A stretch of 4,114 nucleotides of DNA. Origin: a virus. Lineage: Duplodnaviria; Heunggongvirae; Uroviricota; Caudoviricetes. The translations under genes were made by a program, and so were the position numbers. The stretch's first letter is position 1. Each line of letters opens with the position of its first letter. The notes under the pieces are model-generated. The model was not told the DNA's origin, searched no databases, and was given only the letters and a program-made list of their open reading frames with translations. Shown here one piece after another: positions 1 through 4,114 of this stretch. The stretch lies in IMG/VR virus record IMGVR_UViG_2529292871_000019. The stretch is one strand, 5' to 3'.

Positions 1-341
1 GTAAATCTTCACACCCAGCCGTCCACCAGATACTGGCTGACCACGTACAATATTGATTTCATCAAACTGCTCATCGTCCATTAACACTCCCGCATGCGTC
101 AGCGCATCCAGCGGTGCTTTCAGAATATTGTCCAGGTCACGACGACGCTTATCCGGTGGCTCTGCAATAATTTTTATGCCAGCCGTCCGGACAGGCTTAA
201 TTTCAGTCGCTGCTGGCGAACAATAAGCACCACTGCCCGGCGATAACGCTCCCCGGCTTTTGATACAAAATATGTGCTGCCACGGCGTCGCCAGTAAGTG
301 TTCACCGTCGGCGGGTAAGGTAAAACCAAATCTATGAGCAT
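1..341 (-). pseudogene. rusA: rusA-like Holliday junction resolvase, frameshifted and 3'-truncated by the window edge
   Basis: Minus-strand ATG at 341 preceded by GAGGTG; N-terminus MLIDLVLPYPPTVNTYWRRRGSTYF has the RusA-type LPxPPxxN motif and ends at TAA 174-176. The C-terminal part IKIIAEPPDKRRRDLDNILKAPLDALTHAGVLMDDEQF...GGRLGVKIY continues in a different frame from about 180 to position 1. The frame switch coincides with a T5/A5 run at 171-175. Confidence 0.6.
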
Positions 342-353
342 CAGTCACCTCTT

Positions 354-611
354 TTACCCGAGCACGCCAGTCGCAAAGGCGTGATCAAGAAAACGAAAAA
401 TTAAATCAACCTGGGAACCATGCTTTTCTTCGAACGCCAGCGGATCCGCATGAAGCTCGTTGTGATGCTCCCGACACAGCGGTAGCGTGAAAATATCGTG
501 GGATTTTGTTCCCATTCCGCCCTGACCATGACCAATCAGATGATGAGGATCGTCCGCTGGCTTACCACAACACGCACACGGCTGTGTCTTTACCCAGCGT
601 GTGTATTTCTC
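354..611 (-). pseudogene. HNH nuclease-motif segment, apparent C-terminal part of the YdfU/DUF968-like gene, no start codon of its own
   Basis: Same frame as the 630..1397 ORF; translates as EKYTRWVKTQPCACCGKPADDPHHLIGHGQGGMGTKSHDIFTLPLCREHHNELHADPLAFEEKHG... (CxCC, HH, HD and CxxHHxxxH motifs); stop TAA 354-356 is followed 12 nt later by the rusA start with its own SD. Separated from the upstream ORF by TAA 630-632 and TAA 612-614. Confidence 0.5.
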
Positions 612-629
612 TTAACCCAACGGCAACGT

Positions 630-1397
630 TTAGGCCGCCTCATGAACGATTCGGTGACTCCGGATCAACGGCAATGCTGACCACCGTCTTTTCCTGTGGC
701 GGGTTTGCTGGTGGGCGTGAGGCAGCGGCGCAAGATTTTTTGTGCGCTGCTTCAGTATGCTGGTGGCTGTCTGTTCTCCCGGTACGATGTCACTCTCACG
801 GTATACGGAGCGGATTTTTTCCGCTGGTAATCCCAGCGAACGACGCGCTACTGCCTCAGGTAGTGCATCCACCACCTGATTGCAGGCCGCCCACCAGGAT
901 AATTCAGCCAGCGATAATTCACGCTCCTGTGTGCCATTCATTGCGTGACGAATGACGTCAATCATCCATGCTGACAAGTTTTGGTGAGCAAGTTGCTCAA
1001 GTGATTCGGAGGTCTGGTCACGCAACTGGTTGTCGCAGTGCCAGCACAACACCATTGCGCCGGTACCATAACGGTGAATGACGGTTTCACTGTGGTGATA
1101 ATCGCCGTGTGGCCACTGGCAGGATTTAACATGGCGCAGTAACCAGTCAGACAATGCGCCAGCGCCACCAGCAGCACGAATCACTCGTTCGTCGCTGAAA
1201 AATGGCAGTAATGATTTATCCTCCGCCAGCGGCTGGCGAACGGCAGGAACGACCCCGGACGGCAGATTACGCATGCTTTTCGGTTCCGGCTCCACCAGTA
1301 CCCGGGTATTGTGGAATACCGGCATGGATTCACGGCCCGGCTTAACGATCACCAGCCCGAGTTCCGGTACCAGAACAGGTCGAAGTAATACCCGCAC
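630..1397 (-). CDS. YdfU/DUF968-like prophage protein, N-terminal 255-aa ORF as it stands
   Basis: 255-aa ORF in the track. Start is GTG at 1397 (plus 1395-1397 is cac) with GGAGGT 5 nt upstream, overlapping the stop of the rem-like gene, which suggests translational coupling. Family assignment rests on synteny (downstream of hok and rem, upstream of rusA) and recalled length of about 349 aa for the full reading frame 354..1397. Confidence 0.6.
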   Translation of the reverse strand: MRVLLRPVLVPELGLVIVKPGRESMPVFHNTRVLVEPEPKSMRNLPSGVVPAVRQPLAEDKSLLPFFSDERVIRAAGGAGALSDWLLRHVKSCQWPHGDYHHSETVIHRYGTGAMVLCWHCDNQLRDQTSESLEQLAHQNLSAWMIDVIRHAMNGTQERELSLAELSWWAACNQVVDALPEAVARRSLGLPAEKIRSVYRESDIVPGEQTATSILKQRTKNLAPLPHAHQQTRHRKRRWSALPLIRSHRIVHEAA

Positions 1398-1398
1398 G

Positions 1399-1677
1399 TT
1401 ACCTCCAGATGCGTTGCTGGAATGTGCGGGACGGACGCGGTGGCCGTTCGGAGTAAGGAAGCCTGACGGAGATTATCCAGTGACGGTAGTCGAGGCTGAG
1501 GGCTTTCTTAATCTCGTATCCGCGCCTGCGGTAACACTGAATCAGCCATTCAGCCTGTTCTTCGGTGCAGGGGTCGTGCTGATACCAGTCAGATTTGAAT
1601 GCATGAGAACGCCGCCCGTGCCTGCTGGCAGGGGCGGCAGAGTTATCCGAATTGTAAAATTTGGTATCGTGCGCCAT
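1399..1677 (-). CDS. small prophage protein, rem-like by position immediately downstream of hok
   Basis: The 135-aa ORF in the track (1399..1806) contains the hok terminator in its 5' part, so the start is taken as the internal ATG at 1677 (92 aa, MAHDTKFYNSDNSAAP...). Only a weak SD (AGAGAAA); may be expressed by readthrough. Confidence 0.5.
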   Translation of the reverse strand: MAHDTKFYNSDNSAAPASRHGRRSHAFKSDWYQHDPCTEEQAEWLIQCYRRRGYEIKKALSLDYRHWIISVRLPYSERPPRPSRTFQQRIWR

Positions 1678-1749
1678 CTGTTTTCTCTGCTGGCGCAGCA
1701 GGTGCCAGTTGTTCAGGCTGACGGATGGATTGTAAACCAGAACGACCAG

Positions 1750-1774
1750 AAAAAACAAAACCCGCCGAAGCGGG
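1750..1774 (-). terminator. Rho-independent terminator at the 3' end of the hok mRNA
   Basis: Minus strand reads CCCGC-UUCG-GCGGG followed by UUUUGUUUUUU (plus-strand stem 1761-1765/1770-1774, A-run 1750-1760). Confidence 0.8.
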
Positions 1775-1779
1775 TTAAG

Positions 1780-1795
1780 TGCGGGTGCGTTGAGG
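1780..1795 (-). promoter_or_regulatory. fbi-like 3' element of the hok mRNA, complementary to the mRNA 5' end
   Basis: mRNA 3' segment CCUCAACGCACCCGCA can pair with the 5' segment UGCGGGUGCUUGAGG (2158-2172) over 15 bp with one bulge. Confidence 0.65.
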
Positions 1796-1844
1796 ATGCC
1801 TGACACATCAGCGGTGGCGAGGGATTTCTCCCCCGCCTGGTCTC

Positions 1845-2000
1845 TTACTCCTCAGGTTCGTAAGCTGTGAAGACAGCGACCTCCGTCTGGCCGGTTCGGA
1901 TTCGTACCTCGCAGAGGTCTTTCCTCGTTACCAGTGCCGTCACTATGACGGTTAAACAGATGACGATCAGGGCGATTAACATCGCCTTTTGCTGCTTCAT
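1845..2000 (-). CDS. hokD: Hok/Gef-family type I toxin, 51 aa
   Basis: MKQQKAMLIALIVICLTVIVTALVTRKDLCEVRIRTGQTEVAVFTAYEPEE; ATG at 2000 with AGGAGA 7 nt upstream; single transmembrane segment and the conserved Hok C-terminal region. The hokD assignment is from recalled sequence and the adjacent rem-like gene, not from a search. Confidence 0.9.
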   Translation of the reverse strand: MKQQKAMLIALIVICLTVIVTALVTRKDLCEVRIRTGQTEVAVFTAYEPEE

Positions 2001-2057
2001 AACCTGCTTCTCCTTGCCTTTCGGCGCGTAAGAGGCTAACCTACGTTTGTGAAGCAT
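1845..2057 (-). CDS. mok: mok-like upstream reading frame, in frame with hok (70 codons)
   Basis: ATG at 2057 with GAGG 9 nt upstream, 19 codons before the hok ATG and in the same frame; occupies the position of mok in hok/sok loci. Confidence 0.45.
   Translation of the reverse strand: MLHKRRLASYAPKGKEKQVMKQQKAMLIALIVICLTVIVTALVTRKDLCEVRIRTGQTEVAVFTAYEPEE
2014..2042 (+). promoter_or_regulatory. putative sok promoter on the antisense strand inside the mok-hok overlap
   Basis: TTGCCT (2014-2019), 17-bp spacer, TAACCT (2037-2042); same placement as the sok promoter in the plasmid R1 locus as I recall it. Confidence 0.45.
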
Positions 2058-2122
2058 AGATTGGGCCTCAGATTAATGTTAAGCGTCTTGCAGGACGCGT
2101 AATGTTAACTGGGGCTTTTCTC
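2050..2122 (+). ncRNA. sok: Sok-like antisense RNA (antitoxin), ends approximate
   Basis: Antisense to the hok leader and mok start; long imperfect hairpin TTAATGTTAAGCGTC-TTGCAG-GACGCGTAATGTTAA (2073-2108) followed by GGGGCUUUUCUCU (U-run 2116-2123). Confidence 0.5.
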
Positions 2123-2157
2123 TGTCTGCCTTACGGTGGCATGCCCGAGGCAGACAG

Positions 2158-2172
2158 CCTCAAGCACCCGCA
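2158..2172 (-). promoter_or_regulatory. tac-like 5' end of the hok mRNA
   Basis: UGCGGGUGCUUGAGG at the predicted mRNA 5' end, complementary to the fbi-like element at 1780-1795; followed by a leader hairpin with 9-bp stem (2122-2130/2150-2158). Confidence 0.6.
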
Positions 2173-2175
2173 GCA

Positions 2176-2205
2176 ATTCTACTTAACTCTCGCTTTACCG
2201 CAAAC
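2176..2205 (-). promoter_or_regulatory. putative hok promoter
   Basis: Minus-strand -10 TAGAAT (2176-2181) and -35 TTGCGG (2198-2203, 16-bp spacer); predicted start near 2168-2172 gives an mRNA of about 420 nt ending at the terminator. Confidence 0.5.
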
Positions 2206-2214
2206 CGTTTTGCC

Positions 2215-2236
2215 CGATATGGGAATTCCCATATCG
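2215..2236. repeat. 22-bp perfect palindrome CGATATGGGAATTCCCATATCG
   Basis: Exact reverse-complement symmetry read directly from the sequence; lies between the micro-ORF stop (2245) and the hok -35 element. Confidence 0.9.
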
Positions 2237-2244
2237 TAATGAAT

Positions 2245-2349
2245 TCAGTTCCCTAGTCGATCCATCAAAAACACAACCAGGCAGTAAACGCCCACAACAG
2301 CAACAACAGCCAGCGCACCTTCCATTGCCAGTGATATATCATCCGACAT
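2245..2349 (-). CDS. candidate 34-aa hydrophobic membrane micro-protein
   Basis: ATG at 2349 preceded by AAGGAGGG; MSDDISLAMEGALAVVAVVGVYCLVVFLMDRLGN, one predicted transmembrane helix; stop TGA 2245-2247. Below the 60-aa cutoff of the ORF track. Confidence 0.35.
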   Translation of the reverse strand: MSDDISLAMEGALAVVAVVGVYCLVVFLMDRLGN

Positions 2350-2464
2350 ATTCCCTCCTTTGGTGTTAATCCCGGCGAACGTTTTTACCCTCACCGACAA
2401 ATAACATATACTAAAAAAGCGATAGCCATAGCAACGCCTGTAATTGCAAATGCTTCAGGCCAGT

Positions 2465-3334
2465 TCATTGGCGCACCTCCTGCGGCGGTTCTGGTAGAGG
2501 CATCCAGTGTGATGGTATCCACGACGCACCAGGTATTATCCACCCATCATTAGCGTCAGGATGCCCCGGGATGTAAGTCGCCCATTTCATTCGCCAGTCA
2601 CCTTTCCTGCCAAAATCCCTGGCAACAAGAACGGCTGTTTTGGTATCCGGCATTCGCTCACTACAGCTTATCCAACTATCCGGAGTTACCGGATAGTTGC
2701 CCGATAGTGCATTCTGCTCCAGTGATGCTTTTACAAACCACGCTGCCTGAACTATAACGCCATGAATCCAGCGCAAATCAGCATCGCGATCTTTCTTTTT
2801 CATCTTTTCGCCACTTAAGGCCTTGCTTATGTGGCTGCGTGCCAGGTCTTCATGTAATTCCTTCGCCTCCTCAATGGTGAAACCACCAGGCAGAAGAGCC
2901 GGAGTTACCGGAGAGCTGGTTGACGCTTCCGGGATTTTCCGAAAATTATTGGTTGACGAATCTTTATTTTCCCGAAAGTTTCCGGACTGAAACATGGCTT
3001 CGCGGCAATCGTTCCAGCCTGTAGCGTATGCAGCCGCTTTGCTGCTGCCTTCAACTGGCGCATCCTGCCAATACATTTCTTCCGGCACTATCGGCGCTGG
3101 AGGGGCGGCAAATAGATATCCGCCAAAGTCAGGAAGCTCTCTAATGGCCTGTACAAATTTTTGTTTGCCTACGTCAACCCCTAATGGGTAATGAGCTATA
3201 ATCTTTGCCACCGGCTCTGCTTCCAGCGATGCCAGCGCAATCCGTGCCAGTTCCATTTGTTCACCACGGGTAAGCCCGTTTTCAAGCGGATTTTTAATGA
3301 ACAATTCAATACGTTCTTTGGTAATAGTGGTCAT
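2465..3334 (-). CDS. prophage protein with C-terminal DUF551-type domain, 289 aa
   Basis: C-terminus WISCSERMPDTKTAVLVARDFGRKGDWRMKWATYIPGHPDANDGWIIPGASWIPSHWMPLPEPP matches the DUF551 pattern; ATG at 3334 with AAGGAG upstream that overlaps the stop of the 88-aa gene. Confidence 0.85.
   Translation of the reverse strand: MTTITKERIELFIKNPLENGLTRGEQMELARIALASLEAEPVAKIIAHYPLGVDVGKQKFVQAIRELPDFGGYLFAAPPAPIVPEEMYWQDAPVEGSSKAAAYATGWNDCREAMFQSGNFRENKDSSTNNFRKIPEASTSSPVTPALLPGGFTIEEAKELHEDLARSHISKALSGEKMKKKDRDADLRWIHGVIVQAAWFVKASLEQNALSGNYPVTPDSWISCSERMPDTKTAVLVARDFGRKGDWRMKWATYIPGHPDANDGWIIPGASWIPSHWMPLPEPPQEVRQ
2663..2689. repeat. 11-bp perfect inverted repeat CAACTATCCGG-AGTTA-CCGGATAGTTG inside the DUF551 gene
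   Basis: Arms at 2663-2673 and 2679-2689; encodes NYPVTPDSW on the minus strand. Confidence 0.8.
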
Positions 3335-3344
3335 GTGTTACTCC

Positions 3345-3608
3345 TTAACCCGCAGTGCTTTCAACTGATGAGGGGAACAAAATCTTTTCATCAAACCCTG
3401 CATTCATATCATGAACAGCAACACACCAATCCATCGACGAACGATTATCAAGAGCCTCCATGATTTCATCCATGCGGCGTAGGTCATACAGGTAAATGCT
3501 TTTATCGCCAATGGTGTAAAAGCCAATTTTTTTCGGTGATGGACAGCGATCAAGAACTTCCTGTAATTCGTTCAACCATGCCCGTTCTTTTTTTGTCAAA
3601 GTTGCCAT
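3345..3608 (-). CDS. small prophage protein of unknown function, 87 aa
   Basis: Start taken as the internal ATG at 3608 (MATLTKKERAWLNELQEVL...) because it has AAGGAAAA upstream; the track ORF start at 3698 has no RBS. Stop TAA 3345-3347 overlaps the SD of the DUF551 gene. Confidence 0.7.
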   Translation of the reverse strand: MATLTKKERAWLNELQEVLDRCPSPKKIGFYTIGDKSIYLYDLRRMDEIMEALDNRSSMDWCVAVHDMNAGFDEKILFPSSVESTAG

Positions 3609-3757
3609 ATCAGTTTTCCTTATACGGATTAATTTTATTGTGCAGTGTGTTGAATGACGCCCATACCACGTCGTTATACAATTCAATAACTGGCTCAATT
3701 ATTTTTCCGATTATCCATACTAGGATTAACGGGGATATCGGTATCATCAACACGATA

Positions 3758-3784
3758 AACAGAATGAGAAACAGAAATTCTGTT
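3758..3784. repeat. heptamer cluster: AACAGAA twice direct plus one inverted copy in an AT-rich intergenic region
   Basis: AACAGAA at 3758-3764 and 3770-3776, TTCTGTT at 3778-3784; the last two form the palindrome AACAGAAATTCTGTT. Confidence 0.6.
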
Positions 3785-3833
3785 GTTCTACTCTTTCGCG
3801 GATATTTTTTCTAAATAATGTGACCATTCATTA

Positions 3834-3850
3834 CCGCCCTTTCGGGCGGC
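3834..3850 (-). terminator. GC hairpin just after the 70-aa gene stop, possible weak terminator
   Basis: Minus strand GCCGCCC-GAAA-GGGCGG about 10 nt after the stop at 3860-3862, but followed by UAAUGAAUGG rather than a U-tract. Confidence 0.25.
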
Positions 3851-3859
3851 CTCCTGACA

Positions 3860-4072
3860 TTAATCGTTGTGATAACTCATAGCTTCATTTGCAGCATCAA
3901 CTGGATTAACCTCCCACCAGCAATAATTTGGTTCGCCCCCTTCAGGCGTCCATGGTTCTAATTCATTTTTTGCCACATTCTCGTCGCCAGTGATTTTAAG
4001 AATCTGCTCAGAAAATTTTTTCACCCACTCGTTATATTTTTCCGCGTTAATGTTTTTTTGTGTATTTAACAT
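3860..4072 (-). CDS. small prophage protein of unknown function, 70 aa
   Basis: ATG at 4072 with GGAGGAG 5 nt upstream; MLNTQKNINAEKYNEWVKKFSEQILKITGDENVAKNELEPWTPEGGEPNYCWWEVNPVDAANEAMSYHND. Confidence 0.7.
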   Translation of the reverse strand: MLNTQKNINAEKYNEWVKKFSEQILKITGDENVAKNELEPWTPEGGEPNYCWWEVNPVDAANEAMSYHND

Positions 4073-4114
4073 AGATACTCCTCCGGTTAAGGATTAAATT
4101 TTATTTACAGTGCT

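Follow-up and report, generated by a model that had tools for sequence, protein, structure and literature searches.

An interrupted DUF968/YdfU-like frame on a draft contig of Escherichia coli O55:H7, a probable collapsed-repeat chimera of two intact prophage genes

The proteins of the DUF968/YdfU type are predicted to begin with a Cys/His-rich domain, followed by an Orf-like middle part and, at the C-terminus, a zinc-finger HNH (His-Me finger) domain. A role as recombination or DNA-processing nucleases is presumed from their annotation and their nin-region context upstream of rusA. DUF968 has been placed together with DUF1364/YbcO (PDB 3g27) in group 7 of the His-Me fingers, with neighbors that include RusA and Q (PMC5714182), and its members have been described as joining an Orf-like DNA-binding domain to a zinc-finger HNH motif, for which the role of a single-strand-specific nuclease was proposed (PMC4118853). 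No biochemical data on YdfU/DUF968 nuclease activity were found in the literature searched, and a phmmer search of the PDB sequences gave no chain matching the intact protein at E<=1.

YdfU, from the Qin prophage of E. coli K-12, belongs to the family of the genes studied here: the two parental genes described below likewise encode full-length PF06147 proteins of ~349 aa beside rusA and an antiterminator (PMC5714182), whereas the copy in our window combines two alleles and has 95 nt that are read out of frame. YbcO, from the DLP12 prophage (DUF1364; PDB 3g27), shares with them the assignment to His-Me finger group 7 (PMC5714182) and the nin-region position upstream of rusA, but is a small, single-domain protein. 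The likening of DUF968 to lambda Orf and to Orf-HNH fusions was drawn in PMC4118853 from members in Gram-positive phages, and in the protein considered here the Orf-like part, at residues ~160-250, is putative. At the level of the contig, the comparison is with collapsed-repeat contigs in early drafts of prophage-rich E. coli (O157/O55 lineage). Like these, the window is a small repeat-bounded contig with its ends in different prophages, and its mixed consensus and single-base deletions give rise to apparent pseudogenes; its sole oddity is that the deletions sum to -3.

The interrupted frame in the window

The window, that is, the whole stretch of 4,114 nt that was analyzed, is the entire 4114-bp contig AEUB01000140.1 of the draft GCA_000187365.2 of E. 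coli O55:H7 str. USDA 5905, and its features are collected in Table 1. Reading of its open reading frames confirmed what an earlier note on this DNA had described, namely a minus-strand frame of 348 codons, from GTG 1395-1397 to TAA 354-356, in which the only internal stops are two TAA triplets 18 nt apart. In 348 random codons some 16 stops would arise by chance, far more than the 2 in this frame, which is clearly non-random.

Table 1. Coordinates of the features of the window and their counterparts in the closed genome (L009 and L001, prophages at 3.48 and 3.19 Mb of CP039837.1)
Feature	Position	Strand	Remarks
DUF968/YdfU-like frame, chimeric	354..1397	-	348 codons, two internal TAAs
5' three-quarters of the frame	653..1397	-	from the L009 gene (WP_053893804.1, 351 aa, intact)
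3' quarter of the frame, HNH-type domain	354..652	-	from the L001 gene (WP_001265076.1, 349 aa, intact)
Deletion site 1	704..706	-	A-run of 3; parental L009 has 4; L001 longer: CAACAAAA
Deletion site 2, equal to the chimera junction	652..653	-	window CACC/GAATCG; L009 CACCGGCTCAG; L001 CTCCTGAATCG
First in-frame TAA	630..632	-	CCT AAA CGT read out of frame; intact homologs have Pro-Lys-Arg
Second in-frame TAA	612..614	-	GTT AA(T) with its T lost; intact homologs have Val-Asn
Deletion site 3	611..612	-	window GTTAA/GAG; L001 GTTAATGAG; the deletion creates the second TAA
Stretch common to both prophages	652..2448	-	hokD/sok, rem-like gene, 5' part of DUF968; consensus alternates
Single-copy part of the contig	2449..4114	-	100% to CP039837.1 3483248-3484913, the sole such place in that genome
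rusA (Holliday-junction resolvase)	1..341	-	cut by the contig end; 1-nt deletion between +178/+177

The assignment of the frame to the YdfU/DUF968 family, with a length of ~349 aa and a C-terminal HNH-type motif, was also supported, by matches to PF06147 and PHROG 96. The Pfam DUF968 profile matched the frame in two fragments, residues 160-222 (profile positions 1-62; 1.3e-13, 51.8 bits) and the last 85 residues (positions 90-171; 4.5e-44, 150.9 bits), both above the PF06147 gathering score of 27.8 bits, and the profile positions left unmatched between them (63-89) correspond to the stretch that is read out of frame. The C-terminal zinc-finger HNH / His-Me finger motif that was sought, CxxC ... 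HH ... CxxHH-N-xxH, was present at the end of the frame as CACCGKPADDPHHLIGHG...PLCREHHNELH. The deposited annotation of the window derives separate products of 255 and 53 aa from the frame. Compared with the intact 1050-nt DUF968 gene (349 aa) of the same strain, the frame was 98.0% identical.

Residues 1-160 of the frame (window 918-1397, minus strand) lie outside the Pfam DUF968 model and match PHROG 11007 (134 aa). They contain a Cys/His cluster (CQWPHGDYHH...CWHCDN) that may represent a second zinc-binding module.

Alignment to the closed USDA 5905 genome and searches of other genomes

As a reference we used CP039837.1, the closed genome of USDA 5905 obtained by PacBio RS II sequencing and Illumina polishing (PMC9413875); the laboratory stock of USDA 5905 behind the draft may have differed from the one that was closed, a caveat that attaches to the same-strain comparison throughout. 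Two loci are relevant, the prophage at 3.48 Mb (L009) and that at 3.19 Mb (L001), and the parental comparison took in the DUF968 genes at both, two of the five DUF968 places of CP039837.1. A query with the DUF968-rusA-Q block of RM12579 did not return USDA 5905, which is without that prophage. The reverse-complemented window was 99.86% identical to L009 along positions 1-3463 (+652-4114), with the match ending at +652, and the remainder, window 1-651, was identical to L001 apart from two 1-nt deletions. Within the frame, the 5' three-quarters equal L009 with two exceptions, a base of L001 type at +982 and an A4 to A3 deletion, and the 3' quarter equals L001 save for a 1-nt deletion at 612/611, L009 being only ~70% alike there. 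The join at +652 coincides exactly with deletion site 2 and with the point from which L009 and L001 diverge strongly.

Both parental DUF968 genes are annotated as intact in CP039837.1 (1056 nt in L009, 1050 nt in L001), and that of L009 ends there in a quite different HNH-domain allele. Their products matched PF06147 with 255.2 bits (positions 1-171) and 216.6 bits (positions 1-169) along the 171 positions of the profile, and PHROG 96, 'HNH endonuclease', from end to end (7e-176); HNHc_6 was matched by the L009 protein with 31.9 bits, and fell below the cut-off for the L001 protein and for the window. The C-terminus of the parental proteins reads CACCGKPADDPHH...CREHHNELH. They are ordinary full-length DUF968/YdfU-type prophage proteins that were already known, and the window adds nothing new on this family.

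Alignments of the window frame with the intact alleles revealed three 1-nt deletions, which put 95 nt out of frame and sum to -3, so that the frame looks 'unshifted' as long as it is not aligned with homologs. The homologous peptide crosses all three frames, from ...HAHQQ in frame 0 through NPPQEKTVVSIAVDPESP and ESFMRRPKRCRWV to EKYTRWVK..., again in frame 0. Restoring the three bases yielded an open frame of 348 aa, whereas with any one or two of them restored the frame was not open. The 95 nt read out of frame lie in the linker between the Orf-like and the HNH modules. The earlier note had seen no frameshift, only two nonsense codons, and had proposed an alignment with intact homologs to find the sense codons that they replace; the alignments show the three deletions instead and not a single substituted sense codon, and nonsense substitutions were therefore rejected. 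A combination of one 4-nt deletion with two 1-nt deletions, as read from the alignment with the 1050-nt allele, was also rejected, since the parent L009 shows that the first event is the loss of a single A.

In the stretch common to both prophages the consensus is of L001 type at 2212, L009 at 2199, L001 at 2002, L009 from 1535 to 1444, L001 at 982 and L009 from 763 to 655, which amounts to at least six copy switches within 1.6 kb, and from 651 to 1 it is purely L001. The window agrees with neither copy in four columns only (707, 653, 612 and 178), and all four are 1-nt deletions located at or beside sites where L009 and L001 differ. The fourth of these falls in rusA, where L001 has GGCAATAAAAA, L009 has GGCGATAAAG and the window has GGC-ATAAAAA; it produces a premature TAA at 174-176, and both copies in the closed genome are without it.

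The same strain having been sequenced again, the lesion of the DUF968 frame was found to be absent from CP039837.1, in which the best match to the window frame is 98.0% identical. A different picture emerged for the DUF4014 gene of the contig (window ~3810, minus strand; L009 4788-5005), which, compared with RM12579, has lost 1 nt from an A-run: its frameshift is present also in the closed USDA5905 genome, where PGAP flags the gene as 'frameshifted', and in O26 RM10386. Judging from these sequences, DUF4014 is a real pseudogene, unlike DUF968 and rusA, and it serves as an internal control, because it shows that genuine lesions of the contig are reproduced in the closed genome, whereas those of DUF968 and rusA are not.

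The search was extended by megablast to 5,426 complete E. coli genomes, 4,545 of which carry the gene, the best identity being 98.0% and the matched stretches being 1050 nt long versus the 1044 nt of the query. None of the 3,536 records that covered >=80% of the 1044-nt query (from 3,529 of the 5,426 complete E. coli genomes) exceeded 98.0% identity, and no complete E. coli genome among the matches listed carried the deletions. For the 181 nt around the stops, each full-length match listed from the complete E. coli genomes measured 184 nt. The homologs inspected are single uninterrupted ORFs of 348-351 aa, including L001-L007 and L009, which are annotated as intact; in the complete genomes listed the annotation is DUF968 protein, and the interrupted arrangement is not conserved among these homologs and the listed complete genomes. 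A 32-mer across the join was absent from the metagenome contigs, in which the 32-mer of the intact L001 version occurs three times; it was absent as well from the genome contig collection, which is uninformative because the control with the intact version was also empty there.

Origin of the interruption

The comparisons of sequence make it very probable that the interrupted frame is an assembly artifact, a collapsed-repeat chimera with added indel errors, and not a biological lesion. USDA 5905 has several lambdoid prophages, and their hokD - rem-like - DUF968 - rusA segments are near-identical over ~1.8 kb. The assembly would have begun in sequence unique to the 3.48 Mb prophage, and in the common segment reads of two or more copies would have been piled together, making the consensus flip from site to site; once the copies diverge, the contig would have carried on into the 3.19 Mb prophage. 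Three single-base under-calls within 95 nt, one in the A-run beside a place where the copies differ in length, a second at the join and a third 41 nt further on, would then throw the frame out and back, exposing the two out-of-frame TAA triplets. The ends of the contig do map to different loci of CP039837.1, with the breakpoint at the edge of the shared repeat, as is sought for a collapsed repeat, and the alternation between copies at individual sites inside the repeat is what is sought for a mixed consensus. In particular, at least six switches in 1.6 kb point to a column-wise consensus of a two-copy read pile and not to a history of recombination.

With respect to the deletions, pyrosequencing errors or consensus errors on the mixed read pile may account for them. 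The draft that contains this contig is reportedly a 454/Newbler assembly, as are all six draft genomes published by Rump et al. 2011 (J Bacteriol 193:2058). That work is cited in PMC3271280. According to the authors of the closed genome, prophage repeats confound short-read assemblies of these genomes (PMC9413875). A plain homopolymer under-call is found in just one of the three deletions (A4 to A3); the junction represents a change of GG to G only relative to L009, and the loss of T in GTTAATGAG at 612/611 is atypical of pyrosequencing error. Averaging of the two alleles 1:1 in flow space, worked through by hand, did not hold as the exact cause of each one of the deletions: it fits the A-run (4 and 2 giving 3) and the junction, but not the deletion in rusA, downstream of which the A5 is entirely of L001 type. 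Such averaging is kept only as a possibility.

A reading in which the 2011 stock contained a genuine hybrid pseudogene, produced by recombination between prophages and then hit by three 1-nt deletions plus one in rusA, is quite unlikely. Recombination between lambdoid prophages does occur, and alleles of hybrid type are frequent across strains; moreover, the true frameshift in the neighboring DUF4014 gene indicates a prophage that has partly decayed. However, the closed genome of the same strain lacks both the hybrid and all four deletions, and the unique flank, which occurs there once, leads into the different HNH allele. Recombination would also need at least six crossovers in 1.6 kb to generate the alternation at single sites, and the join combines a missing base with the end of a shared repeat. 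In addition, the exact 255-aa product (ECO5905_23051) was found on AEUB01000140.1 as the sole contig among the indexed gene positions. Many coincidences would be needed for the 2011 stock truly to have had a hybrid DUF968 gene inactivated by three deletions, with a fourth in rusA, none of which is in the closed stock. Were this so, the window would offer a snapshot of very rapid decay of nin-region nuclease genes, and even a real lesion would still be a routine prophage pseudogene.

Two further explanations were considered. A naturally split gene, encoding a 255-aa N-terminal protein and a separate C-terminal HNH protein, would be in line with the deposited products of 255 and 53 aa and with the existence of N-terminal-only (phrog_11007, 134 aa) and C-terminal-only (phrog_1588, phrog_23141) families among the PHROGs. 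This explanation is very improbable, given that the last ~24 residues of the 255-aa product are an out-of-frame translation with no homology, that the 53-aa ORF begins inside the HNH motif after CxxC and so is without half of the zinc site, and that no split at the same position is seen in other genomes among the complete E. coli matches listed. Programmed recoding, by readthrough or ribosomal frameshifting, could give a full-length nuclease from a frame of full length with its two stops close together, but the homologous protein needs three separate +1 shifts and not readthrough, the inspected homologs (L001-L007, L009 and the listed complete genomes) have one plain ORF, and the arrangement is unique to one draft contig; its probability is next to negligible.

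Returning to the assembly artifact, it agrees in spirit with one of the two outcomes that the earlier note had left open, recent inactivation or sequence error: the error is very probable, and inactivation is made unlikely by the intact state of both parents in the closed genome. Sense codons at both sites, which that note would have taken as refutation if seen in reads, are in effect present in the closed PacBio and Illumina genome. The case calls for caution: where an early draft, here of a prophage-rich O55:H7 strain, has small contigs derived from repeats, the pseudogenes seen on them can be consensus artifacts and are not to be counted as instances of inactivation. It also illustrates how compensating frameshifts can escape notice in a frame of full length that has in-frame stops, becoming visible only by alignment with homologs.

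Neighboring genes

On the minus strand the gene order of the window is a DUF551 protein, hokD with the sok antisense RNA, a 92-aa rem-like ORF, the DUF968 frame and rusA, and at related loci antiterminator or DUF1133 genes follow downstream; these neighbors are those of a typical lambdoid nin region. In the deposited annotation rusA appears as a 116-aa product from GTG 348 in the C-terminal frame.

The DUF551 region contains an uninterrupted ORF of 289 aa with a terminal DUF551 domain (window 2465-3334, minus strand; L009 5281-6150). The sequence of this ORF is identical in the closed genome, where PGAP has two partial pseudogene fragments and a 112-aa DUF551 gene, so that the mismatch is a discrepancy of annotation and not a difference of sequence. 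A 107-bp unit with a 34-aa ORF (WP_001278454.1) is present as a single copy in the window (~2240-2350, minus strand; L007 3267-3478), and it is tandemly duplicated in O55:H7 RM12579, DEC5D and TB182A.

The type I toxin-antitoxin module hokD/sok is complete (window 1845-2169, minus strand). It comprises the Hok ORF (Pfam HOK_GEF, 1.3e-23), an overlapping mok-like ORF of 70 aa, and the sok RNA at 1995-2169 (Rfam RF01794, 114.9 bits). The window has the L001-type T and not the L009-type C at +2002, a position two bases 5' of the hok ATG.

The rem-like ORF (1399-1680, minus strand) encodes 92 aa that match PHROG 1212, a family of unknown function, with no Pfam match. Its TAA lies 1 nt before the GTG of the DUF968 frame, and a GGAGG is found within its last codons, which suggests that the rem-like ORF and DUF968 may be translationally coupled.
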